A stretch of DNA of 64,000 bases from positions 440,510,001-440,574,000 of the forward strand of contig OZ024740.1 in the NCBI GenBank assembly GCA_964016885.1, read 5' to 3'. Positions 3,027 through 54,487 of the stretch are shown in pieces (the stretch's first letter is position 1; each line of letters starts with the position of its first letter). Below the pieces are notes generated by a model. The model searched no databases. It worked only from the letters and a program-made list of their open reading frames with translations, and was not told where the DNA came from. Source of the DNA: Eledone cirrhosa. Its lineage: Eukaryota. The translations under genes were made by a program, and so were the position numbers.

Positions 3027-3938
3027 TTATACTTCTCTTAGGTCAGTGTTGTTTGTTTGGGTGTTGTTGTTGTTCCACTCATTCTTTCTGTTTAGCTTTG
3101 GTCTTCTAATTTCTATTTCACTGGCCTCTCTGATTTGCCTATCTGCTGGGTCATTCCTATGTTTAGATATTATTCTAATTTCTATGTTGTCTATGTTACC
3201 GTCATGTTGTTGTCTAGCATGTTCGTATAGTACTGACCCGTTTTTTCGTCCTTTTAGTTCCCCCCAGTGTTGGTCTATCCTTTCACCTATGCTACGAGCT
3301 GTCTCACCTATGTATGTTGTTGTCGTGTTTCTGCAAGTACCCTCTGTACATCTTATGCTATAGACTACGTTTCTAGTTTTACAGTTTATCCGGGGGTTCA
3401 CCTTACATATGATACATTTCCTATTGGTACAGTGGGTTTTCTTAAAAGGGTAGGTTTTGCTGATCAGGGATTTTATGGTGGTTCCTGGCTTTTCTACCAC
3501 CTTTATTTTTAAGTGGGTCTTTCTCAGGGCCTTTCTACACTGGTTAGCTAATTTCCCTCCAGGGGTGGCGTCCACAAACATGACACTCTGATATCTCTGG
3601 TTGTCGTACCATGATGTGGCCTTCCCTATCTTATGTCTAGCCCTATCTAAGCTATTCCATGATTTGTTCCTGTATAGTGGGCAAATTCCTTTCATGTCCA
3701 GTTCTATGAGGGTCTTATACTTTTCCATGGCTCCTTCGTATACTCTGACTCTGTCTCTTTGGTTGTAGCCAGAGAGCTGCATGCGGTTGATGAAGTGTTG
3801 GATGTGTCCTTCCATTTCTGTTGGGTCGCACATGCTGGACACATTCTTCATCACTCGTACCAAATCTGCGATCAGAATATTAAACTTAGCACTACTGGAC
3901 ATTGCTGAGTTTTTGAGTATCAGGTATTTGGAGGCCAT
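3027..3938 (-). CDS. PLE polyprotein C-terminal part (RT thumb/linker + Cys-rich motif + GIY-YIG endonuclease), 5'-truncated
   Basis: CTNRKCIIC...CKTRNVVYSIRC...C...YIGETARSIGERIDQH...LYEHARQQH...RQIREASEI...P.LN shows GIY-YIG and CCHH hallmarks. Confidence 0.85.
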   Translation of the reverse strand: MASKYLILKNSAMSSSAKFNILIADLVRVMKNVSSMCDPTEMEGHIQHFINRMQLSGYNQRDRVRVYEGAMEKYKTLIELDMKGICPLYRNKSWNSLDRARHKIGKATSWYDNQRYQSVMFVDATPGGKLANQCRKALRKTHLKIKVVEKPGTTIKSLISKTYPFKKTHCTNRKCIICKVNPRINCKTRNVVYSIRCTEGTCRNTTTTYIGETARSIGERIDQHWGELKGRKNGSVLYEHARQQHDGNIDNIEIRIISKHRNDPADRQIREASEIEIRRPKLNRKNEWNNNNTQTNNTDLREV

Positions 3939-3976
3939 GGGTTTAGCATATATATATATACATATATATATTTTTT

Positions 3977-4420
3977 TTCTTTAAGTCGTTTGGAAGCCTC
4001 GACAATGCAGATGGATAAATCTCCGGGTAACAAGATCCGGTGGTGGAGAGAGATATTCAAAACAACGAATAGCGGAGGACACGTTTCGCACCTTTCCGAC
4101 AGACCCCCCCCCCCCCGGAAAAAACCCACTTGATGGATGTGAGTCCGAAATATATAGGGACAATTAAATCTCTCCCAAGGCAACTCTTTCTCGTGTTGTT
4201 ATTTTTATTTTTATCCTTTACGCTCATTTCTTCATTCCTCTACACGTTACAGTCTTATACACACCACGCATCTCAACGTACACCCACTTACATCTTTCTC
4301 TCCACCACCGGATCTTGTTACCCGGAGATTTACCCATTTGCATTGTCGAGGCTTCCAAACGACTTAAAGAAATTTACCTTATTATTCCACAATGCTTCAA
4401 GCAAACTTCAATACTCTCTT
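3977..4420. repeat. Fold-back element, arms about 3977-4053 / 4296-4372
   Basis: tctttaagtcgtttggaagcctcgacaatgc...ggtggtggagaga and its reverse complement, TA-flanked. Confidence 0.75.
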
Positions 4421-11917: not shown

Positions 11918-12593
11918 TCTATGCTAGCAAATATATAATTGTTCATATAATTGTTCTGCATCCCCTTGCATTGAACCACAAAGTTACTAAGACAAAACCT
12001 ATATATTTGCTAGCATAGGTATGCATCTGTATATATATGTTGGTAGATATACTAATTCTTTATAATTATCTCCAAATTATTTTGTTGAGCAAAAATTTGC
12101 CAAAACTGCTACTATAGTTCATAGTAATAGTTCTGCTACTGTCTTCTTAACACCCCACTCCTCACTGATTAACCTCGATGTCACGTGATTGATTCTTTTG
12201 AATTTGCCACCGACCAAGTAGGCAGTGATTTTTTTAATGTCTTGGAATTTAGTCCTCGCTTGCTTTTTTCCATCCACTGAATTATTTTTGTATAAATTCC
12301 CTGTGTCCACGCATTGTCTGGGAACTTAGCTGAGAATTGACTTCTTGATGACGAAAGGTTTTCTCCATGTTGTTCCATTCGGAAACCATGTTTATTCCCT
12401 TTCAGAAACTAATTAGTTTGAGTGAAATTTTAGTAAGTAAGTTAATTTTTATAATTTTCTTATTTTACGTCTTTCATATAATTGTTCTGCATCCCCTTGC
12501 ATTGAACCACAAAGTTACTAAGACAAAACCTATATATTTGCTACCATAGGTATGTATCTGTATATATATGTTGGTAGATATACTAATTCTTTA
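11918..12593 (+). mobile_element. ORF-less HHR element, about 531-nt period (diverged member of family B)
   Basis: 11944-12062 is repeated at 12475-12593. Homologous to 38905-39931, with a degenerate HHR at 12340-12423. Confidence 0.75.
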
Positions 12594-12644
12594 TATATAT
12601 ATATATATAATATATGCACATGGTCTGAAGCAGTAGACTCAGAC

Positions 12645-17235: not shown

Positions 17236-20200
17236 TGCCTGTGAAAGGGGACAGTATTGCCTGTGAAAGGGTACAGTACTGCCTGTGAAAGGGGGCAGTG
17301 TTGCCCGTGAAAGGGGACAGTTTTGCCTGTGAAAGTGGACAGTATTGGCTGTGAAAGGGGACAGTACTGCCTGTGAAAGGGGACAGTACTGCCTGTGAAA
17401 GGGGGCAGTACTGCCTGTGAAAAGAGACAGTACTGCAAGTGAACGATGACAGTATTGCCTGTATAAGGGGCCAGTATTGCCTGTGAAAGGGGACAGTACT
17501 GCCTGTAAAAGGTGACATTACTGCGTGTGAAAGGGGACAGTATTGCCTCTGAAAGGGGACAGTATTGCCTGTGAAAAAGGACAGTACTGCCTGTGAAAAA
17601 GGACAGTACTGCCTGTGGAAGGGGACAGTATTGCCTGTAAAAGAGGACAGTACTGCCTGTGAAATATGACAGTACTGCCTGTGAAAGGGGTCAGTGTTGC
17701 CTGTGAAAGGGGTCACTATTGCCTGTGAAAGGGGACAGTATTGCCTGTGAAAGGGGACAGTACTGCCTGTGAAAGGGGACAGTGCTGCATGTGAAAGGGC
17801 ACAGTATCGCCTGTGAAAGGGAACAGTATTGCCTGTGAAAGGGGACAGTACTGCCTGTGAAAGAGGACAGTACTGCCTGTGAAAGAGGACAGTACTGCCT
17901 GTGAAAGGGGACAGTACTGCGTGTGAAAGAGGACAGTATTGCCTGTGAAAGATGTCAGTATTGCCTGTGAAAGAGGACAGTACTGCCTGTGAAAGAGGAC
18001 AGTACTGCCTGTGAAAGGGGACAGTATTGCCTGTGAAAGGGGACAGTATTCATTGTGAAAGGGAGCAGTACTGCCTGTCAAAGAGGAGAGTATTGCTTGT
18101 GAAAGAGGACAGTATTGCCTGTGAAAGGGGACAGTACTGCCTGTGAAAGAGGACAGTATTGCTTGTGAAAGAGGACAGTACTGCCTGTGAAAGGGACAGT
18201 ACTGCCTGTGAAAGGGGACAGTACTGCGTGTGAAAGAGGACAGTATTGCCTGTGAAAGATGACAGTACTGCCTGTGAAGGAGGACAGTACTGCCTGTGAA
18301 AGGGGACAGTACTGCCTGTGAAAAGGGACAGTACTGCATGTGAAAGGGCACAGTATCGCCTGTGAAAGGGAACAGTATTGCCTGTGAAAGAGGACAGTGC
18401 TGCCTGTGAAAGAGGACAGCATTGCCTGTGAAAGGGACAGTACTGCCTGTGAAAGAGGACAGTACTGCGTGTGAAAGAGGACAGTATTGCCTGTGAAAGA
18501 TGTCAGTACTGCCTGTGAAAGAGGACAGTACTGCCTGTGAAAGAGGACAGTACTGCCTGTGAAAGCGGACAGTATTGCCTGTGAAGGGGGACAGTATTCC
18601 TTGTGAAAGGGGACAGTACTGCCTGTCAAAGAGGACAGTATTGCTTGTGAAAGAGGACAGTATTGCCTGTGAAAGGGGACAGTACTGCCTGTGAAAGAGG
18701 ACAGTATTGCTTGTGAAAGAGGACAGTACTGCCTGTGAAAGGGGACAGTACTGCGTGTGAAAGTGGACAGTATTGCCTGTGAAAGATGACAGTACTGCCT
18801 GTGAAAGGGGACAGTACTGCGTGTGAAAGAGGACAGTATTGCCTGTGAAAAGGAACAGTACTGCCTGTGAAAGAGGACAATACTGCTTGTGAAAGGGGAC
18901 AGTACTGCCTGTGAAAGGGGACAGTATTGCCTGTGAAAGGGGACAGTATTGCCTGCGAAAGGGGACAGTACTGGCTGTGAAAGGGGACATTACTGCGTGT
19001 GAAAGAGGACAGTACTGCCTGTGGAAGGGGGCAGTACTGCCTGTGAAAGGGAACAGTACTGCATGTCAAAGGGGACAGTACTGCATGTGAAAGGGGACAG
19101 TACTGCCGGCGAAAGGGGACATTATTGCCTGTGAAAGGGAACAGTACTGTCTGTGAAAGGGGACAGTACTGCATGTGAAAGAGGACAGTACTGAACATGA
19201 AAAGGGACACTATTGCCTGTGAAAGGGGACAGCATGGCCTGTGAAAGGGGACAGTACTGCCTGTGAAATATGACAGTATTAACTGTGAAAGGGGACAGTA
19301 CTGCCTCTGAAAGGGGACAGTACTGCCTGTGAAAGAGGACAGTACTGCCTCTGAAAGGGGACAGTATTGCCTGTGAAATGGGGCAGTACTGCTTGTGAAA
19401 GGGGACAGTATTCCCTGTGAAAGGGGACAGTATTGCCTGTGAAAAAGGACAGTACTGCCTGTGAAAGGGGACATTATTGCCTGTGAAAGAGGACGCTATT
19501 GCCTGTGAAATAGGACAGTACTGCCTGTGAAAGGGGAAAGTACAGCCTGTGAAACAGAACAGTACTGCCTCTGAAATATGACAGTATTGCCTGTGAAAGG
19601 GTACAGTACTGCCTGTGAAAGGGGACAGTATTGCCTGTGAAAGAGGGCAGTATTGCCTGTGAAAGGGGACAGTATTGCCTGTGAAAGGGGACAGTACAGC
19701 CTGTGAAAGAGGACAGTACTGCCTGTGTAAGGGGGCAGTACCGCATGTGAAAGGGGACAGTACTGCCTGTGAAAGAGGACAGTACTGCATTTGAAAGAGG
19801 GCAGTATTGACTGTGAAAGAGGACAGTACTGCCTGTGAAAGAGGACAGTCCTCCCTGTGAAAGGGGACAATACTACCTGTGAAAGGGGACAGTACTTCCT
19901 GTGAAAGAGGACAGTACTCCCTGTGAAAGGGGACAATACTACCTGTCAAAGGGGACAGTGTTGCCTGTAAAAGAGGACAGTACTGCCTGTGAAACGGGAC
20001 AGTATTGCTTGTGAAAGGGGACAGTATTGCCTGTGAAAGAGGACAGTACTGTCTGTGAAAGGGGACAGTACTGTCTGTTAAAGGGGACACTACTGCCTGT
20101 GAAACAGGACAGTATTGCTTGTGAAAGAGGACAGTACTGCCTGTGAAAGGGGACAGTACTGCCTGTGAAAGGGGACAGTACTGCGTGTGAAAGAGGACAG

Positions 20201-23200
20201 TATTGCCTGTGAAAGATGACAGTACTGCCTGTGTAAGAGGACAGTACTGCCTGTGAAAGGGGACAGTATTGCCTGTAAAAGGGGACAGTATTGCCTGTGA
20301 AAGGCAACAGTACTGCTTGTCAAAGAGGACAGTATTGCTTGTGAAACAGGACAGTATTGCTTGTGAAAGGGGACAGTACTGCCTGTGAAAGAGGACAGTA
20401 TTGCTTGTGAAAGAGGACAGTACTGCCTGTGAAAGGGGACAGTACTGCCTGTGAAAGGGCCCAGTACTGCGTGTGAAAGAGGACAGTATTGCCTGTGAAA
20501 GATGACAGTACTGCCTGTGAAAGGGGACAGTACTGCGTGTGAAAGGGGACAGTACTGCGTGTGAAAGAGGACAGTATTGCCTGTGAAAAGGAACAGTACT
20601 GCCTGAGAAAGAGGACAATACTGCTTGTGAAAGGGGACAGTACTGCCTGTGAAAGGGGACAGTATTGCCTGTGAAAGGGGACAGTACTGGCTGTGAAAAG
20701 GGACATTACTGCGTATGAAAGAGGACAGTACTGCCTGGGAAAGGGGACATTACTGCGTGTGAAAGAGGACAGTACTGCCCGTGGAAGGGGGCAGTACTGC
20801 CTGTGAAAGGGAACAGTACTGCATGTCAAAGGGGACAGTACTGCATGTGAAAGGGGACAGTACTGCCGGCGAAAGGGGACAGTATTGCCTGTGAAAGGGA
20901 ACAGTACTGTCTGTGACAGGGGACAGTACTGCCTGTGAAAGGGGACAGTACTGTATGTGAAAGGAGACAGTATTGCCTGTTAAAGAGGACAGTTTTGCCT
21001 GTGAAAGGGGACAGTATTGGCTGTGAAAGGGGACAGTACTGCCTCTGCAAGAGACAGTACTCCCTGTGAATGTGGGCAGTGTTGCTTGTGAAAAGGGAAA
21101 GTTTTGCCTGTGAAAGGGGACAGTATTGGCTGTGAAAGAGGACAGTACTGCCTGTGAAAGAGGGCAGTACTGCCTGTTAAAGAGGACAGTACTCCCTGTG
21201 AAACAGGCAGTACTGCCTGTGAAAGGGGACAGTACTGCATGTGAAAGAGGACAGTACTGAACATGAAAAAGGACACTATTGCCTGTGAAAGGGGACAGTA
21301 TTGCCTGTGAAATGGGACAGTACTGCCTGTGAAATATGACAGTATTAACTGTGAAAGGGGACAGTACTGCCTGTGAAATATGACAGTATTAACTGTGAAA
21401 GGGGACAGTACTGCCTCTGAAATGGGACAGTACTGCCTGTGAAAGAGGACAGTACTGCCTCTGAAAGGGGACAGTATTGCCTGTGAAATGGGGCAGTACT
21501 GCTTGTGAAAGGGGACAGTATTCCCTGTGAAAGGGGACAGTACTGCCTGTGAAAAAGGACAGTACTGCCTGTGAAAGGGGACATTATTGCCTGTGAAAGA
21601 GGACGCTATTGCCTGTGAAGTAGGACAGTACTGCCTGTGAAAGGGGACAGTATTGCCTGTGAAAGGGGACAGTACTGCCTGTGAAAGGGGAAAGTACAGC
21701 CTGTGTAACAGAACAGTACTGTCTGTTAAATATGACAGTATTGCCTGTGAAAGGGGACAGTACTGCCTGTGAAAGGGGACAGTATTGCCTGTGAAAGAGG
21801 GCAGTATTGCCTGTGAAAGGGGACAGTATTGCCTGTGAAAGGGGACAGTACAGCCTGTGAAAGAGGACAGTACTGCCTGTATAAGGGGGCAGTACCGCAT
21901 GTGAAAGGGGACAGTACTGCCTGTTATAGAGGACAGTACTGCATGTGAAAGAGGGCAGTATTGACTGTGAAAGAGGACAGTACTGCCTGTGAAAGAGGAC
22001 AGTACTCCCTGTGAAAGGGGACAATACTACCTGTGAAAGGGGACAGTACTTCCTGTGAAAGGGGACAATAGTACCTGTGAAAGGGGACAGTGTTGCCTGT
22101 GAAAGAGGACAGTACTGCCTGTGAAACGGGACAGTATTTCTTGTGAAAGGGGACAGTATTGCCTGTGAAAGAGGACAGTACTGTCTGTGAAAGGGGACAG
22201 TACTGCCTGTGAAAGAGGGCAGTATTGACTGTGAAAGGTGACAGTACTGCCTGTGAAAGAGGGCAGTGTTGCCTTACAAGGGGACAGTACTGCCTGTGAA
22301 AGAGTGCAGTATTGCCTGTGAAAGAAGGCAGTACTGCCTGTGAAAGGGGACAGTATTGCCCGTGAAATAGGGCAGTACTGCCTGTGAAAGGGGACAGTAC
22401 TGCCTGTGAAAGGGGACAATGTTGCCTGTGAAAGAGGACAGTATTGCCTGTGAAAAAGGACAGTACTGCCTGTGAAAGAGGACAGTATTGCCTGTGAAAG
22501 GGGACAGCACTGTCTGTGAAAGAGGATAGTACTGCCTGTGAAAGAGGACAGTACTGCCTGTAAAAGGGAACAGTACTGCCTGTGAAAGAGTGCAGTATTG
22601 CCTGTGAAAGAGGACAGCACTGCCTGTGAAAGAGGATAGTACTGCCTGTGAAAGGGGACAGTACTGCATTTGAAAGGGGACAGTATTGCCTGTGAAAGAG
22701 GACAGTATTGCCTGTGAAAGGGGACAGTATTGCCTGTGAAAGAGGACAGTACTGTCTGTGAAAGGGGACAGTACTGTCTGTGAAAGAGGACAGCACTGCC
22801 TGTGAAAGAGGACAGTACTGCCTGGGAAAGGGGACAGTATTCCCTGTGAAAGGGGACAGTATTGCCTGTGAAAAAGGACAGTACTGCCTGTGAAAGGGGA
22901 CATTATTGCCTATGAAAGAGGACGCTATTGCCTGTGGAAGAGGAGAGTACTGCCTGTGAAAGGGGACAGTATTGCCTGTGAAAGGGGACAGTACTGCCTG
23001 TGAAAGGGGAATGTACAGCCTGTGAAACAGAACAGTACTGCCTGTGAAATATGACAGTATTGCCTGTGAAAGGTGACAGTACTGCCTGTGAAAGGGGACA
23101 GTACTGCCTGTGAAAGAGGACAGTACTGCCTGTGAAATATGACAGTATTGCCTGTGAAAGGGGACAGTACTGCCTGTGAAAGGGGACAGTATTGCCTGTG

Positions 23201-23871
23201 AAAGAGGGCAGTATTGCCTGTGAAAGGGGACAGTATTGCCTGTGAAAGGGGACAGTACAGCCTGTGAAAGAGGACAGTACTGCCTGTGTAAGGGGGCAGT
23301 ACCGCATGTGAAAGGGGACAGTACTGCCTGTTATAGAGGACAGTACTGCATGTGAAAGAGGGCAGTATTGACTGTGAAAGAGGACAGTACTGCCTGTGAA
23401 AGAGGACAGTACTCCCTGTGAAAGGGGACAATACTACCTGTGAAAGGGGACAGTACTGCCTGTGAAAGAGGGCAGTACTCCCTGTGAAAGGGGATAATAC
23501 TACCTGTGAAAGGGGACAGTATTGCCTGTGAAAGAGGACAGTACTGTCTGTGAAAGGGAACAGTACTGTCTGTGAAAGAGGGCAGCACTGCCTGTGAAAG
23601 AGGACAGTACTGCCTGGGAAAGAGGGCAGTATTGCCTGTAAAAGTGTGCAGTATTGTCTGTGAAAGAGGGCAGTACTGCCTGTGAAAGAGGACAATACTG
23701 CCTGTGAAAGAGGGCAGTACTGCCTGTGAAAGGGGACAGCACTGCCTGTGAAAGGGGATAGTACTGCCTCTGAAAGTGGACAGTACTGTCTGTTAAAGGG
23801 GACAGCGCTCCCTGTGAAAGTGGACAGTACTGCTTGTGAAAGGGGACAGTATTGCCTGTGAAAGAGGGGCA
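17236..23871. repeat. Satellite of about 6.6 kb, 22-bp unit TGCCTGTGAAAGGGGACAGTAC (about 300 copies)
   Basis: Continuous tandem array with variant units and recurring multi-unit blocks. Confidence 0.97.
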
Positions 23872-32354: not shown

Positions 32355-32825
32355 GGATTAACAAATAATAGTTAAATGCAGTCCACTTAGGTGAAGTCCA
32401 GTTATGGTATTCCAGGTAGTGGATGATATTAACGCTTGGCTTGGTTTGACTCAACAAGGCGTTTTCATAGTGATGCTGCAGGTATGCTGTAATTCCTATG
32501 TTGTAAACACTTGGAGTAATAATATATCAGGAAAGAAGGTTTACATGGTTTGCTATACAAAAAAGTTTTTAATCACATAGCTTACATTTGTTTCACTGAA
32601 CTGGTATGTCTAGAGATCGCTATCCGCTTAATTTTGCGTTACTCGATCGCCAATACAGAATTATAACCAGTCAGATCTTCGGAGCATGCGAGAATGAAGA
32701 AAATACACAGGCAAGAAAAGAAAAGAAAATACAGGCTACTATCTTAAGTAGTAATGGCATTCAATTAGAACAATAACAACAATTACAACAATGCTATCAA
32801 TAAATTATTTAAGGAGACCCTGATA

Positions 32826-33904
32826 ATTAAATCCATAGCACGTAGTATATCACACCGAATATCCCGCTTATCCTCAAACCTAGAAATCTTTAACGAGCAT
32901 GCTGACTATTATAATGCAGCATTAAGTAGGGCCGGTCATAAAGATAAACTACAGTATATAGTGAATAAGGACAACATAAACAATCCTAGTAATTACTACT
33001 CCAACCGCTCACATAATAATAGGAATAGCTTGATTAGACATAGGGTTAGACATGTAACACCTAGAGTAAACGGCCAAAACACTAATAACGTAAACCCAAG
33101 AAACAATAGAAGAAACAGACAAAGAAAATACCTATGGTTCAACCCAATATTCAACTCCTCTATAAAAACTAGACTGCCCTCTACATTCTTTAAACTAATA
33201 GATAAACACTTCCCTATCTCGCATAGATATCACAAAATACTCAATAGATCTACTATTAAACTCTCATTCTCAACAGCAGCTAACATAGAATCACACATAC
33301 GCAAGATCAACCACAGAAATATCTCTAGTAAATCAATTGCACCTATACATAAGCACAAACTCATCACAACATCACAACCACAAGCGCATACAAACGCGCA
33401 GCAGCAAAACCCCATTGGGCATATATCACAACCCACTTATAACAGAGTACTAAACAGGAATGTAAAAGCTGCACAAAATAGCGCCTCAAACTGCAACTGT
33501 CACCTCCCAGATAGGTGCCCATTGGCGAACAGGTGTCTCGATTCGAGCCTGGTGTACATGTGCACTGTCATCTCGGGTAACTCCACTTGGAATTACATAG
33601 GATCCACCGCGGGTTCTTTTAAGAAAAGATGGTATGTGCATAGGCACTCAATGAAAAACCGTGCACTTATGGGTTCCACTACCCTCGCCAGAAAAATATG
33701 GGAATTGAAGGACAGCAACACTAACTACAGTATCAACTGGTCGAAGTTGTCGGCTGCTAAGGGATGTCCTATTGCGGGCTGTGTGATCTTGAGCTATTGT
33801 ATATCCTTAGAAATGTTAAAATGCTACTTAATAATAAGTTAGAAAGATCTATCTTCTGCAGACATAGAATAGCCACTAAATTCATAAGATTCAAACCTCC
33901 GTGA
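32826..33904 (+). pseudogene. PLE RT-thumb/Asn-rich linker/GIY-YIG, frameshifted near the C-terminus
   Basis: ISHRISRLSSN...WFNPIF...CNCHLPDRCPLANRCL...VYMCTV...YIGST...FKKRWYVHRHS. Homologous to 51454-52788. Confidence 0.85.
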
Positions 33905-34661
33905 ATCGAACCAACATAACATAGCTTTAAATTAGGATACCTACTACCCACAGAAATATATTCATTAAGTATACTATATCCTTCACAAGTCTATACCACA
34001 CAATTGTCTGTAAGTACCTCATCTACCAACAATCTTACTCCTTCTCATTTGATCCTAAATCCTAGTTTTTCTCATTTCACTACTACAATGTTACTTTACC
34101 TTCTTTTTGCCTTAATTACAATTAGCACGCTTTTCTCTTTGCATGTATGTATATTTGTGTACGAGTGTATATTGATGTGTATGTATGTGTCTATGTACAC
34201 ATGCATGTGTATATATGTGTATATATATTTATATATATGTGTGTGTGTGTGTATGTGTATGTGTGTGTGTGTGCGTAAATATATGCGTATATTAATTCGT
34301 TAACCTCTGTATTAACTCTACAACTATTTAGCTTTGACAGTGGTCCCACTCATGTATACTGTTGAAGATGAAGAGAAAGACTGTAAAAACTAGCTTATCT
34401 TTATAATTTAAAATTGATATACACTACGATACTCTGTACATGTCAACACTTCATTTTGCCTTATGACAGCTAGTTTTCACGCCGTAACATTAGATACATT
34501 ATATACCCCCCACCTAAGTAATGTCAGGGTCTCCTTAAATAATTTATTGATAGCATTGTTGTAATTGTTGTTATTGTTCTAATTGAATGCCATTACTACT
34601 TAAGATAGTAGCCTGTATTTTCTTTTCTTTTCTTGCCTGTGTATTTTCTTCATTCTCGCAT

Positions 34662-34767
34662 GCTCCGAAGATCTGACTGGTTATAATTCTGTATTGGCGA
34701 TCGAGTAACGCAAAATTAAGCGGATAGCGATCTCTAGACATACCAGTTCAGTGAAACAAATGTAAGC
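34662..34767 (+). ncRNA. HHR (CCGAAGA core) with stem-II insert of about 60 nt
   Basis: GCT CCGAAGA T CTGA CTGG...CCAG t TCAG T GAAA CAAATG TA AGC. Confidence 0.65.
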
Positions 34768-34822
34768 TATATGATTAAAAACTTTTTTGTATAGCAAACC
34801 ATGTAAACCTTCTTTCCTGATT

Positions 34823-34880
<58 letters not shown>

Positions 34881-37872: not shown

Positions 37873-38236
37873 TAAAAGGAATTCCAACTTTGTCTGATTA
37901 CTCGTTTTATTTACAATCCTTTAAAATTTATAATGGTATTAGAATGAAATAGTATGGTAGAATATTAAATGTTAAGTGTTAATTGAACAAGTACTTTCAT
38001 GCTTTCGCAATCTTCAGGTTCATAATGTGTGGTGACAGTCAACTGTTGAAAATTGCAAACTTGACTGTCACCACACATTATGAACCTGAAGATTGCGAAA
38101 GCATGAAAGTACTTGTTCAATTAGTACTTAACATTTAATATTCTACCATACTATTTCATTCTAATAACATTATAAATGTTAAAGGATTGTAAATAAAACG
38201 AGTAAATCAGACAAAGTTGGAATTTCTTTTATTAAT
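37869..38236. repeat. Fold-back element (arms of about 175 bp) with an HHR in each arm
   Basis: Inverted arms about 37869-38043 / 38061-38236. Confidence 0.9.
38081..38119 (+). ncRNA. 39-nt minimal HHR (mirror copy 37984-38022, -)
   Basis: TGAAC CTGAAGA T TGC gaaa GCA T GAAA GTAC TT GTTCA. Confidence 0.85.
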
Positions 38237-38271: not shown

Positions 38272-38326
<55 letters not shown>

Positions 38327-39242
38327 ATATATATATATATATATATACACAGAATTAGTATATCTACCAACATATGCGTACAGATGTACACTAATGCTAG
38401 CAAATACATAAGTTATGTCATAGTACCTAGGTGGTTCAATGCAGGAAAATGCAGAACAATAATATGAAAGACGTAAAATAAGAAAATTTAAAAAAAAATT
38501 AAAAATTAACTTACTTACTAAAATTTTCACTCAAACTAATTAGTTTCTGTAATGGGATAAAGATAGTTACGTAATATAACCATCGAGAATTCATTACGTC
38601 ATCAGGGAGTCTATTCTCAGCTAAGTCTCCAGGCAATGCGCGGACACTGGGGACTCATATAAAAATAATAATAATTCGGTGGAAGGAACAGCTAGCGGAG
38701 ACTGGATTCCATGCACTGAAAAAGTTCGCTGCCTCTGGTCAAATGGCAGATTCTAAAGAATCAATCACGTGACACTGAGGCTAGTCGGAAGGAGTGGGTT
38801 GGTAAGATGACAGAAGCCTACTACCACACCAATGAATTAGTAGCGGATTTGGCAGGTTTGCTCAACAAATAAATAATTTGGAGATAAATACAGAGAATTA
38901 GTGTATTTGCTAGCATTAGTGTACATCTGTACGCATATGTTGGTAGATATACTAATTCTCTGTATTTATCTCCAAATTATTTATTTATTGAGCAAACCTG
39001 CCAAATCCGCTACTAATTCATTGGTGTGGTAGTAGGCTTCTGTCATCTTACCAACCCACTCCTTCCGACTAGCCTTAGTGTCACGTGATTGATCCTTTAG
39101 AATCTACCATTTGACCAGAGGCAGCGAACTTTTTCAGTGCATGGAATCCAGTCCCCGCTAGCTGTTCCTTCCACCGAATTATTATTATTTTTATATGAGT
39201 CCCCAGTGTCCGCGCATTGCCTGGAGACTTAGCTGAGAATAG

Positions 39243-39324
39243 ACTCCCTGATGACGTAATGAATTCTCGATGGTTATATTACGTAACTATCTTTATCCCA
39301 TTACAGAAACTAATTAGTTGGAGT
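39243..39324 (+). ncRNA. HHR, palindromic stem III
   Basis: ACTCC CTGATGA c GTAATG...CATTAC a GAAA CTAATTAG TT GGAGT. Confidence 0.8.
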
Positions 39325-39785
39325 GAAAATTTTAGTAAGTAAGTTAATTTTTAAATTTTTTTTAAATTTTCTTATTTTACGTCTTTCATATTATTGTTCT
39401 GCATCCTCCTGCATTGAACCACCTAGGTACTATGACATAAATTATGTATTTGCTAGCATTAGTGTACATCTGTACGCATATGTTGGTAGATATACTAATT
39501 CTCTGTATTTATCTCCAAATTATTTATTTGTTGAGCAAACCTGCCAAATCCGTTACTAATTCATTGGTGTGGTAGTAGGCTTCTGTCATCTTACCAACCC
39601 ACTCCTTCCGACTAGCCTCAGTGTCACGTGATTGATTCTTTAGAATCTGCCATTTGACCAGAGGCAGCGAACTTTTTCAGTGCATGGAATCCAGTCCCCG
39701 CTAGCTGTTCCTTCCACCGAATTATTATTATTTTTATATGAGTCCCCAGTGTCCACGCATTGCCTGGAGACTTAGCTGAGAATAG

Positions 39786-39867
39786 ACTCCCTGATGACGT
39801 AATGAATTATCGATGGTTATATTACGTAACTATCTTTATCCCATTACAGAAACTAATTAGTTGGAGT
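39786..39867 (+). ncRNA. HHR, tandem copy 543 nt downstream
   Basis: Same motif as 39243-39324. Confidence 0.8.
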
Positions 39868-39978
39868 GAAAATTTTAGTAAGTAAGTTAATTTTTAATTT
39901 TTTTTTAAATTTTCTTATTTTACGTCTTTCATATATATATATATATACTTACACATATACACGTACTATTGACCAAAT

Positions 39979-50372: not shown

Positions 50373-51453
50373 ATATACATATATATATATATATGAAATA
50401 TAAGAATCAAAGAACTGTTCAAAACATTATTGTGCTTACAGCTGTTTCCTCCAAACCGAGGTTTGGATTCTTCGGAGCAATTTATTAATGCATGGACAGT
50501 TATATGACCTCCTTTTCAGCCGAGAGACATACCGATACATATTCAAACATTGATACATATTCAAACATTGTGGGTCAACATTCATTACAGAATTTAGAGT
50601 GGCAGTACACACTTCGAGATTACATTTATATTAAGAGGTACAATCAAAAATCAAAATACAGGTTAAAATATAGGTTAAAATACAACATGAAGATAAGTGG
50701 TTATATAGTGCAAATGTTATATGTGTGGCACGCATGTGTGTCTTGTTTATATAGTGTGGCAGAGAGATATGTGTGGTAGAGGCACTTAGGTAGGTAAGCA
50801 AGAGTGTTAGGTTGGTAGATCTGGTGGCAAATTCTTTATATGATTGATATAGTCTGTGTGTGGAAAAATATTATAAGCATTAAAAATAGTGCAAGCATTA
50901 AAAGTGTTAAAAGTATTGGAGATGCACAGCGCAGGGAAGTCAAGTATTTCATGTACTTCGGCATTTTCATGGTCAGGGGAGTGTATTTATCGATTATATG
51001 CCTTTCACATAATCCACGACAATCCAGTTAGAGATCGTAGTCTGGTGTTCTTTAGTTCAATACAGGAGGCTGTTCCGTTTCGAGAAACGCCATTGAATAC
51101 TGCCCGGAAGTGTGTGTGTGGCTAAGGGGAGTTAATGCATGCGGGGAGGTAACTCTGGGGTTTCTATACCTAGCTATTAAAATGTGTCCCAATATAGACC
51201 TTAATTTCTATGGTGATGCGCATCCTCCAAGAGAAATTTTTAAAGCATAAAGTGTATTAACTATAGAGTAGTTTAATTAAGTTATGCTGAAGGTGATCAT
51301 ATTATTATGGTGGATTAACCCATCGTAAGGTGCCACAAATGGAAATTATAGATGATGAGCGAGGATTCCAAATAATGATCTCTGTGGTCGTAGTCTACTC
51401 ATATTCTACTTATAGAATATAAAAAATTTAATATAGAAAGAACTAGAAAGCAA

Positions 51454-52788
51454 TTGCATAAGACATTCAAAAACTTTAACCTTAGTATCACCATGGACAA
51501 AAACACTAAAAATGTTAACTTCCTAGACGCCACACTATACCTAGACTCAAAAATATATACACCTTTCCATAAGCCTAACGAGAAACTTATTTACGTAGAT
51601 ACCAAGTCTAATCACCCTAGATCAATATTAAACTCTATCTCTAAGGGGGTGCCCAATAGAATCTCTAGACTGTGCTATGACGCAAACATATTTAGCAAAA
51701 ACTCACAATACTACAATCAAGCATTAGCTAGCTCCGGCCATAATATAGAAATTGAGTTCCTACCTAAGAAAACACATAGCTACAACATCATCTCGCACAA
51801 CATGTCCATGAGGAAACATAATAATAGGAATAGCAACCACAAGCGCACCAAAGTGGAGGGTGCCACCGGAAGTAACCATTACCATGGAAACTACTGTGGG
51901 GCCTTAGGAGGAAGCAACACACCAAACACTAAAAGCAAAAATAGAAGAAGAAATAATACATTTTTCAACCCTCCTTTCAACCTAAATGTCTCCACCAACA
52001 TACCTAGGGCTTTCTTCTCACTACTAGATCAAAACTTCCCTCTAGGACACAAGTACCACAACCTCTTAAACAAAAACACTATTAAAATCTCATACTCTAC
52101 GACGCCTAACTTAGCATACCACATAGCTAGCAGCAATAATAGTAAAATTAGTTCTTACTTCCAACAAACAAAATCACAACGGGATGCAAACCCTCTAAAT
52201 ACCACTGTAGCAAGCAACCATAGCAACGGCAGTAACAATAGAAATAACACTAGTATAAGTAATAACACCAGGGTTGTCAATCCGAACACCCAAAATCCTA
52301 TAGCTACCACACAGACCTCCACACTGCATTATAACCAGCGGACTAACGCACAGGATAATTGTAACTGTAGAGGTAATAGAACCTGCCCTTTAGATAAAAA
52401 ATGCCTAACCAAGGATATCATATACTCATGCACCGTCACAACTAGCAACTCTTCAGAAACCTATGTAGGCTCCACTTCTAACTGCTTCAAAATCAGATAT
52501 AATTTGCACATCCACTCGTTCAAAAAGCACAGCCTAGCAAACTCCACCTCACTTTCTAGCTACATACACTATCTAAAATCTAAAAATAAACCATACACAC
52601 TCAAATGGGAGGTGATAGGCAGCGCGACCTCGTACAAACCACCTAATAAATTTTGTAACCTCTGTATACTAGAGACACACAATATTATCTTCTCCAACCG
52701 TAACCTACTTAACAAAAAATCTGAGGTGTTTGCAACTTGCCAGCACCGCTTCAGACATTCCTTCCAAAACTTTAAGCCCAATATATAG
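51454..52788 (+). CDS. PLE polyprotein C-terminal 444 aa (RT motifs 6-7/thumb, Asn-rich linker, CNC..CPL..C, GIY-YIG), 5'-truncated
   Basis: VNFLDATL, FHKPN, SNHP, FFNPPFN, CNCRGNRTCPLDKKCL, IIYSCTV, TYVGST, FKIRYNLHIHSF, CNLCILE. Confidence 0.9.
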   Translation: MHKTFKNFNLSITMDKNTKNVNFLDATLYLDSKIYTPFHKPNEKLIYVDTKSNHPRSILNSISKGVPNRISRLCYDANIFSKNSQYYNQALASSGHNIEIEFLPKKTHSYNIISHNMSMRKHNNRNSNHKRTKVEGATGSNHYHGNYCGALGGSNTPNTKSKNRRRNNTFFNPPFNLNVSTNIPRAFFSLLDQNFPLGHKYHNLLNKNTIKISYSTTPNLAYHIASSNNSKISSYFQQTKSQRDANPLNTTVASNHSNGSNNRNNTSISNNTRVVNPNTQNPIATTQTSTLHYNQRTNAQDNCNCRGNRTCPLDKKCLTKDIIYSCTVTTSNSSETYVGSTSNCFKIRYNLHIHSFKKHSLANSTSLSSYIHYLKSKNKPYTLKWEVIGSATSYKPPNKFCNLCILETHNIIFSNRNLLNKKSEVFATCQHRFRHSFQNFKPNI

Positions 52789-54240
52789 CAATGTCGGACT
52801 GGAACCTAACACCACATCTAGCATCAAACACCAGAGACACACCTTATACTACATACCCAACACTAACTGATCTATTATAACACAAACAACGACATCCCTC
52901 CGGAACCCTTCGCAGGGAGAATACCCATTTATACCTCTACGTCAGGTGTGACAACATCCACCCACTTGAACGGCACTACACCGCTCTAAGGGTAATTTGA
53001 GCATGAATTGATCGGTTGGATAGTGTTGTGCAGAGGAAACACCTTCCTTAGACAAATGAAAACTGTTTTAATCTAGTAACGCTGTTGACCAGTAGGACCG
53101 GGCTGCTGAGCGCAGTGAGTGAATGCATTGCAACAGCCGCGCGGGTTGTACATATATGGATGATCTGACAGTCAGAGAGGGGTCGCGAGGACTGCGGATT
53201 GACCTCTGGCCGGCCTGGGGATGATTATCTCTCGACATCCAATGTAGCAAGCGATGACCCAGATCTTACCAGAGATCATTGGGTCCTGAAGCAATCCTGC
53301 AATCACCGCGCCTGGTCCTATGAGTAGACTACGACCACAGAGATCATTATTTGGAATCCTCGCTCATCATCTATAATTTCCATTTGTGGCACCTTACGAT
53401 GGGTTAATCCACCATAATAATATGATCACCTTCAGCATAACTTAATTAAACTACTCTATAGTTAATACACTTTATGCTTTAAAAATTTCTCTTGGAGGAT
53501 GCGCATCACCATAGAAATTAAGGTCTATATTGGGACACATTTTAATAGCTAGGTATAGAAACCCCAGAGTTACCTCCCCGCATGCATTAACTCCCCTTAG
53601 CCACACACACACTTCCGGGCGGTATTCAATGGCGTTTCTCGAAACGGAACAGCCTCCTGTATTGAACTAAAGAACACCAGACTACGATCTCTAACTGGAT
53701 TGTCGTGGATTATGTGAAGGGCATATAATCGATAAATACACTCCCCTGACCATGAAAATGCCGAAGTACATGAAATACTTGACTTCCCTGCGCTGTGCAT
53801 CTCCAATACTTTTAACACTTTTAATGCTTGCACTATTTTTAATGCTTATAATATTTTTCCACACACAGACTATATCAATCATATAAAGAATTTGCCACCA
53901 GATCTACCAACCTAACACTCTTGCTTACCTACCTAAGTGCCTCTACCACACATATCTCTCTGCCACACTATATAAACAAGACACACATGCGTGCCACATA
54001 TAACATTTGAAATATATAACCGCTTATCTTCATGTTGTATTTTAACCTATATTTTAGCCTGTATTTTGATTTTTGATTGTACCTCTTAATATAAATGTAA
54101 TCTCGAAGTGTGTACTGCCACTCTAAATTCTGTAATGAATGTTGACCCACAATGTTTGAATATGTATCAATGTTTGAATATGTATCGGTATGTCTCTCGG
54201 CTGAAAAGGAGGTCATATAACTGTCCATGCATTAATAAAT

Positions 54241-54287
54241 TGCTCCGAAGAATCCAAACCTCGGTTTGGAGGAAACAGCTGTAAGCA
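54241..54287 (+). ncRNA. HHR (CCGAAGA core), palindromic stem III
   Basis: TGCT CCGAAGA a TCCAAACC tc GGTTTGGA g GAAA CAGCTG TA AGCA. Confidence 0.75.
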
Positions 54288-54487
54288 CAATAATGTTTTG
54301 AACAGTTCTTTGATTCTTATATTTCATATAACTGCTCTGTAAATCATGTGATGTTTTTACATTGAGCTACTTAACTTACTGGTAATAAGGTAGTAATACA
54401 TTACTGCCTATCACTATTTGGGTGTGTGTAAAATACTTATAACTGCATAAGGTTTTGTATTTACATAACCATAAATAGTATAACTAA

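Follow-up and report, generated by a model that had tools for sequence, protein, structure and literature searches.

An ORF-less tandem hammerhead repeat with two fixed 3′ ends in Eledone cirrhosa: a candidate non-LTR retrozyme, probably copied by a Penelope-like protein

Related retroelements and the insert in the window

The closest described systems are the non-LTR retrozymes of metazoans and the insertions of Penelope-like elements (PLEs). Non-LTR retrozyme units have a consensus length of 51–972 bp in a preprint whose main text samples no mollusc (Li, Clavereau and Pollet 2026, bioRxiv 10.64898/2026.07.22.740005), and of 150–450 bp in the available sections of Cervera and de la Pena 2020 (PMC7229834), where the retrozymes of coral, mussel and axolotl are reported to yield circles. 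In vitro, one of nine Xenopus retrozyme dimers was cleaved (Li et al.). PLEs carry a minimal hammerhead, which in the available part of PMC4209133 (Cervera and de la Pena 2014) is defined by a conserved core, a stem I of 4–5 bp, one additional base inserted between A9 and G10.1, pairing of G10.1 with C11.1 and a palindromic stem III; cleavage of PLE hammerheads as dimers is described in the accessible text of PMC4209133 and PMC7229834. In the sections available of PMC3846280, PMC8557442 and PMC11167929, PLE insertions have two 3′ ends downstream of the hammerhead with a tail between them, an inverted copy at the 5′ side, an AT-rich target and microhomology junctions. Biochemical analysis of an Anolis PLE protein revealed that it nicks and extends both strands and starts at two internal RNA sites in vitro, that the tail is the sequence between these two start sites, and that the protein acts mainly on uncleaved RNA (Frangieh et al. 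2024, PMC11167929).

The window is a stretch of 64,000 nucleotides of Eledone cirrhosa (contig OZ024740.1, positions 440,510,001 to 440,574,000), in which a non-autonomous retroelement with a 543-nt hammerhead unit had been predicted. The insert consists of two arms joined head-to-head; unit positions are numbered from the first base after the predicted cut. The inverted arm (38341..~38903, − strand) contains 1.04 units, from unit position ~171 to 193, and terminates at a long, tail-bearing 3′ end (L, unit ~190) beside a (TA)n tract (38323..38346) that runs on into (TATC)n. The direct arm (38902..39934, + strand) contains 1.90 units, from unit position 126 to 72, and terminates at a short 3′ end (S, unit 72) beside a second (TA)n tract (39930..39948). 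The arms meet at 38894..38906 with a microhomology of a few bases, and the insert is a standard case of one S and one L end. In the direct arm, two PLE-type minimal hammerhead motifs of type I (39243..39324 and 39786..39867, + strand) have cores (CUGAUGA ... GAAA ... GUU) beginning at 39248 and 39791, with GUU cleavage predicted after 39319 and after 39862. These sites are exactly 543 nt apart, as the original prediction stated, and enclose a complete unit (39320..39862, +) without an ORF and with a predicted compact fold (z −5.7). The direct copies share 98.2% identity across 496 nt, and the inverted arm is 97% complementary across 585 nt, which bears out the predicted third, inverted unit; the (TA)n claimed for both sides is seen outside both arms. 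The direct arm also contains internal copies of the S site (39385..39391, +, unit ~66–72) and of the L site (39498..39512, +, unit ~179–193), which would be the first and the second start of reverse transcription, and between them lies a long conserved hairpin (39445..39495, +) with three pairs changed on both sides. The hammerhead motif of the inverted arm (38529..38610, −) has its core at 38605–38599 and its predicted cut between 38534 and 38533. The claim of one hammerhead per unit holds in that the motif is found in every unit, but in this inverted copy a change of G1.1 to U (38533) breaks the first stem-I pair. A second, older copy of the family (11942..12600, +) belongs to another subfamily, is 77% identical to the window insert, and contains ~1.2 units with an L end and (TA)n. 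Comparison of contigs and RAD-seq reads with the locus revealed no empty allele, and no start or end either.

Other repeats are present in the window as well. Four further hammerhead motifs belong to other repeat families (11191; 34987, −; 47071, −; 54970). PLE ORF fragments, none of which is recognised by Pfam, occur at 50390–54330, 32522–34825 and 3027–3980, the former two between long inverted repeats (684 and 302 nt, respectively). A 22-nt minisatellite of ~301 copies occupies 17236–23864, and a 145-nt inverted repeat with flanking (TA)n at 37898–38205, just left of the insert, is probably another small PLE-type insert.

The hammerhead motif of the family has a stem I of 5 bp and a palindromic stem III, and its stem II is non-canonical, with an extra C after A9 and an extra A before G12. 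The core, stems I and III, the base between A9 and G10.1 and the G10.1-C11.1 pair all agree with the minimal hammerhead of PLEs, and the added A before G12 is a variant. Rfam found no hammerhead, either at the gathering score or at E≤10, and returned only hairpin-driven miRNA matches at the inverted junction. At minimum energy, the predicted fold of the isolated motif is not the active shape. The triplet is GUU, the weakest of the NUH triplets, in 9,169 copies versus 81 with A, C or G at position 17; about half of these non-U copies (0.9%) come from one sub-lineage. Among 23 monomers, 97.0% of cells are paired versus 93.0% in shuffles and 112 cells versus 43 are changed on both sides, with two compensated pairs in stem II, in a consensus structure taken for the most part from this very alignment, stems I and III being placed manually, and for sequences whose relatedness inflates such counts. 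This covariation supports, though it does not prove, a structural conservation of the RNA. The core and stems are kept across the 26% divergence of the subfamilies, and the unit RNAs of the 12 subfamilies, taken as circles, are predicted to be compact (z −3.8 to −7.1; 15 shuffles each). A sub-lineage in which GUA replaces GUU in all units of an insert (L187–L196) forms a natural pair with the GUU copies for cleavage assays.

Copies across the genome and the pairing of their 3′ ends

Within the 3.0-Gb genome of the animal, a 22-nt motif across the predicted cleavage site has 9,169 exact matches and the reversed control has none, so that the repeat is not a product of chance. Seventy complete monomers of 507–571 nt form 12 clusters (subfamilies) up to 26% apart, and the longest stop-free stretch in the 12 consensuses is 51–88 codons in six frames, which confirms the predicted lack of an ORF. 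Consecutive units with type I hammerheads, the absence of an ORF, a length in the published range and a predicted compact fold are among the features of non-LTR retrozymes, and all of these are found in this family. The unit had been thought unusually long; published units span 51–972 bp and a length of 543 nt is therefore ordinary. Pieces of several subfamilies were also matched in sequencing runs labelled as four other organisms. One head-to-tail array of 80.7 kb contains 154 family units and has an L end with (TA)n (G000:C5:84645838-84726568; L179–L184, L199–L202). Only 48 of 151 units in the array keep an intact core and neighbouring units are 5.5% apart; it is a retro-insert turned satellite and shows that tandems also grow at the DNA level. 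Such arrays are not the main form of the family, as no arm at the other 189 loci exceeds 3.4 units.

Two further hammerhead repeats were observed. An ORF-less sister family (L162:4480-5060, −; L241–L260) has units of 478–482 nt, a GUA triplet and 2,597 candidates; its ends lie at ~+75 and ~+190, as in the GUU family, and seven of eight inverted pairs combine a long and a short end when scored on a mis-phased reference. A 311-nt hammerhead repeat with several near-identical units on both strands, arranged head-to-head (L062:1500-3500), is another retrozyme-like family. Arms of the GUU family are also joined, without TA, to other small repeat families at L274, L162 and L322.

The 3′ ends were studied in 338 arms mapped at 189 distinct loci, a sample rather than the whole family, selected from the best DNA matches, from the hits of four exact motifs taken along the genome and, for one locus, from a protein search; three segmental duplicates and the long array were omitted. 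Of these arms, 152 end at S (~72), 159 end at L (~175–210, with the mode near 190), 20 end elsewhere and the remaining 7 are cut off. A (TA)n tract comes after 151 of the 152 S ends and 154 of the 159 L ends, and 60 of 74 single arms also have one in front; the TA tracts on both sides mask any target-site duplication, which in non-LTR retrozymes exceeds 4 bp where there is one. PBS and PPT are absent from elements of that kind. The 5′ ends are scattered round the whole unit. As 311 of the 338 arms end at S or L, the unit is not freely permuted. The original prediction held that arms begin and end at differing points, which is true of the window locus; across the genome only the 5′ ends vary, and its corollary, free circular permutation of both ends, is ruled out by the two fixed 3′ sites.

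Arms joined head-to-head obey a nearly obligatory rule. Among 128 such pairs, 109 combine S with L, two combine L with L, none combines S with S, and 17 include an unclassifiable arm, giving 109 S+L pairs among 111 classifiable inserts (p = 2e-30 against equal odds); both L+L pairs are complex, three-piece loci. The rule held in 74 of 75 inserts of the first set and in 36 of 37 of the second, a count that still includes one duplicate removed later. PLE-type insertions are characterised by fixed 3′ ends with a tail, variable 5′ ends, an inverted 5′-truncated copy and a microsatellite target, and all of these are present. The exception is the length of the tail: the S-to-L interval is ~118 nt in this family and 83 nt in a Hydra-type PLE family of the same genome, in contrast to the 30–40 bp given in the accessible text of PMC3846280 and PMC8557442. 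A (CT)n run is expanded to 4–30 repeats at 45 of 93 terminal L sites versus 0 of 99 internal L sites, suggesting reiterative, telomerase-like slippage when copying starts; instability beside the TA tract could also contribute. Some arm junctions contain filler: a 169-nt copy of neighbouring flank sequence at L013:2191-2359 and an oligomer, short and repeated, at L010:1266-1312.

Template, helper and rival explanations

Regarding the RNA template, the predicted cut is crossed once, twice and three times by 104, 56 and 7 of 200 arms, respectively, and 5′ ends at the predicted site number 4 versus 3.2 expected. The longest arm has 3.4 units, and arms pass the site up to 3–4 times. This read-through without an excess of stops implies a template with an intact junction, either a circle or a multimer, and supports that part of the original prediction. 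A linear cleaved monomer as sole template was rejected, as 5′ ends do not accumulate at the cleavage site; a mild excess of 5′ ends at unit 1–30 (28 versus 17) falls in an AT-rich stretch and is uncorrected. The position-17 counts given above contain no error signature of a ligation junction. Tandem units differ by 2.2%, the two arms of an insert by 2.4–2.5%, and other inserts of the same subfamily by 4.5–5.0%; this closeness within an insert holds in 52 of 56 and 46 of 49 inserts, and a young arm of 3.4 units has private differences only. These sequences show a single source for each insert, which is consistent with one unit being copied over and over. Within the youngest-subfamily sample, the number of 5′ ends rises in a step just past one unit length (12 versus 2 within 60 nt), as collision on a circle would give, but this step was noticed after inspection of the data and occurs in one of three samples. 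Neither of the two others shows it (4 versus 6; 2 versus 3), nor does a same-segment control (ratio 1.17, p 0.42). We give even odds to a circle as the main template.

The candidate helper is a young and abundant PLE family with an intact frame of 821 aa and 69 near-full matches (L211–L240, L383–L402). Its frame (L238) has RLRW (not exactly RWK), DKT and CxCx5C motifs, and the element has a hammerhead and (TA)n-flanked ends. The Hydra clade is defined by RWK-like, DKT and CxCx5C motifs, a C-terminal EN, a hammerhead and a (TA)n target in the available part of PMC8557442, and the 821-aa family is assigned to this clade by these motif features rather than by a tree. Its 3′ ends lie at +51 and +134, and its inverted inserts combine S and L in 22 of 22 and 7 of 7 classifiable cases (29 of 29 in total), although three of the 22 contain TA inside. 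Three TA-free head-to-head fusions connect a family arm to a Hydra arm. Two of them (L100 and L218) combine a Hydra S end with a family L end and the third (L398) has two L ends; among 40 candidates that were scored, the L100 junction occurs only once, and the L218 arms are similarly young (97.8% and 96.5–96.8% identical to their nearest copies). Nested insertion combined with deletion could also account for the fusions. The family and the Hydra element do not resemble each other in sequence, and a ribozyme-plus-tail profile search over 0.75 Mb found only family copies and thus no autonomous partner by homology. On account of the shared S+L rule and the three fusions, the Hydra clade is regarded as the probable helper.

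One alternative is that the unit is an autonomous PLE's pseudo-LTR, the copies being truncated tails of that element. The fixed 3′ ends, the tail, the inverted 5′-truncated copy and the hammerhead would then all be accounted for, since these are PLE features. However, the arms continue head-to-tail into the next unit for up to 3.4 units and not into an ORF, and 44 TA-free flanks yielded only four PLE ORF matches and one PLE 3′ UTR abutting a 5′ end, with each of these five joins at a different unit position. In each of the two families joined in the sense direction (L083, L139), 19 of 19 further copies carry that family's own ends, which are different ones. Of the signs named in the original prediction for an ordinary pseudo-LTR, fixed ends are found for the 3′ ends only and a constant attachment to a PLE ORF is not; with no recurrent RT-EN ORF junction in the 189-locus sample, this origin is largely refuted and very improbable. 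A fold-back element or a satellite propagated at the DNA level, in which the hammerhead is a passenger, would suit the long inverted arms and the single 80.7-kb array. It is scarcely credible given that the inverted arms have unequal, defined ends and random centres, that truncation affects the 5′ side while the 3′ ends are fixed, that a single-strand structure covaries, and that (CT)n expands only at terminal L sites. The non-autonomous nature claimed for the element is supported, as it is ORF-less and not a pseudo-LTR, and so is the insertion of a ribozyme element of PLE type at (TA)n. The family is very probably a non-autonomous PLE passenger with two-site priming.

The remaining rivals concern the form of the template and the identity of the helper. 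An uncleaved multimeric transcript of tandem genomic copies could be primed at the same two sites, with extra units regenerated in DNA by unequal crossing-over or conversion and with a ribozyme that cuts rarely and produces no replicative circle. Variants common to both arms in the same lap are in excess (8 of 6,615 versus 2 of 8,649 opportunities, p 0.02), as a linear multimer predicts, but all eight come from the first set and the second has none in 1,417 opportunities. A non-cleavable G17 is present in both tandem units of one arm (L185), the 154-unit array has grown out of an L-ended insert, and the stop rate climbs with arm length, from ~2 to ~5 per 1,000 nt beyond 600 nt; the GUU core and the preference of the Anolis protein for uncleaved RNA point the same way. 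On the other side, tandem units are no more divergent than same-lap copies in the two arms (2.2 versus 2.5%; 2.3 versus 2.7%), so that aged tandem sources have left little trace, and the core and stems are maintained across the divergence of the subfamilies. The decay and divergence of the array units mean that the array is not the template of the dispersed arms, and it was rejected as a master copy. The multimer is accordingly a serious alternative held at somewhat below even odds. Independently of the template question, the helper might be a Neptune-like (CxxC-linker) PLE, or another TA-targeting PLE outside the sample, instead of Hydra. Two Neptune-like families were characterized (L344–L362, L364–L382), each with a pair of 3′ ends flanked by TA (spacing ~40 and ~70 nt) and with no hammerhead in the stretch examined. 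Two TA-free sense joins connect family arms to the 3′ UTRs of two Neptune-like families (L083, L139), which likewise end at two TA-flanked sites, and the Hydra element differs from the retrozyme family in tail length and sequence. Yet both joins are one-offs, that at L083 lies 8 nt from the short end of the Neptune-like element itself, as in a nested insertion, no hammerhead is visible at the Neptune-like ends, and head-to-head fusions occur at none of 38 Neptune-picked loci versus two of 57 Hydra-picked loci. A helper other than Hydra is thus rather unlikely.

Comparison with described families and proposed mechanism

The family is a tandem repeat that has no ORF, carries a hammerhead motif in each unit and ends at two fixed 3′ sites. 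It is read as a non-LTR retrozyme whose predicted self-cleaved, probably circular RNA would be copied in trans by a Penelope-like protein that targets (TA)n and most likely belongs to the Hydra clade, and a probability of roughly 0.5 is assigned to this reading as a whole. The family resembles metazoan non-LTR retrozymes in that its units stand in tandem, lack an ORF and each carry a type I hammerhead. As in those elements, there are copies in the thousands, which occur as monomers, dimers and, rarely, a long array, and there are a predicted compact fold and coexisting PLEs. It differs from them in that its ribozyme is of the minimal PLE type, with a GUU triplet and an A added ahead of G12, and its unit exceeds the 150–450 bp of Cervera et al. 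In contrast to published retrozymes, its insertion ends are mapped to two fixed sites and most of its inserts are head-to-head. A helper is suggested here by fusions, as opposed to co-occurrence or pLTR homology, and circles are known for the retrozymes of coral, mussel and axolotl, whereas this family is described from DNA.

Unlike published PLE insertions, whose two 3′ ends, tail, inverted copy, AT-rich target and microhomology junctions it shares, the family has no ORF. The pairing of one short and one long end is nearly obligatory in it and in the Hydra-type family, while in the available text of Arkhipova et al. 2013 (PMC3846280) and PMC8557442 the tail is described as facultative or as frequently confined to a single end. 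With the Hydra clade, the family has (TA)n targeting and hammerheads in common, as far as the accessible sections of Craig et al. 2021 (PMC8557442) describe it, and the intact Hydra-type family of this genome follows the same two-end rule and is found fused to the family, which for its part encodes nothing and has no likeness to it in sequence. No non-autonomous Hydra passenger is seen in those sections. Non-autonomous Chlamys elements such as MRC1 (PMC8557442, same sections) are likewise non-coding PLE passengers with multicopy head-to-tail insertions, but they share 3′ sequence with an autonomous family and mostly have no canonical hammerhead. The claim that the family is undescribed stands insofar as no account of it was found, but its kind, non-LTR retrozymes of PLE origin, is published. 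A search of the main texts of openly accessible papers returned no description of the family or of an obligatory one-short-one-long rule; Repbase, Dfam or paper supplements may contain the family. The words "retrozyme" and "hammerhead" do not occur in the available main text of PMC13282606, and the available part of PMC3088659 has nothing on GUU or the stem-II variant. What is known comprises non-LTR retrozymes, their length range and their PLE origin; what is added is the near-obligatory S+L pairing and the ~118-nt tail.

In the proposed mechanism, the unit RNA would be transcribed, cleaved, perhaps as a dimer or with the assistance of a protein, and ligated. The helper would nick both strands of a TA tract, and a single RNA would be primed at S from one nick and at L from the other, probably with one priming site per subunit of a protein dimer. 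S and L are read as internal start sites because two-site initiation was shown for the Anolis protein (PMC11167929). Each cDNA would run backwards through the intact ribozyme junction and halt at a variable point, after which the two cDNAs would be joined by microhomology, or a single cDNA would be joined to the target. If true, dimer two-site priming would yield exactly one short and one long end per two-armed insertion, and the pairing likely shows how the enzyme primes both DNA strands. A wider proposal, that a Hydra-clade protein dimer loads the circular ribozyme RNA and primes both TA strands at two dedicated sites, which would name the reverse transcriptase of an animal retrozyme and give a general mechanism for PLE inverted repeats and tails, is tentative and on present evidence doubtful.

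The cited literature leaves open which enzyme mobilises animal retrozymes and how PLEs build tandem and inverted insertions. The family supplies a 540-nt substrate with two mapped start sites and an intact candidate helper in the same genome. The prediction is that the top strand is primed at one site and the bottom strand at the other, which suits the existing in vitro assay; in that assay, the start site showed no strand difference (PMC11167929). If the circle is not the template, the family is one more large group of PLE passengers, deserving a name in repeat annotation. If it is, rolling-circle reverse transcription into the genome of an animal would have a direct example in this family.
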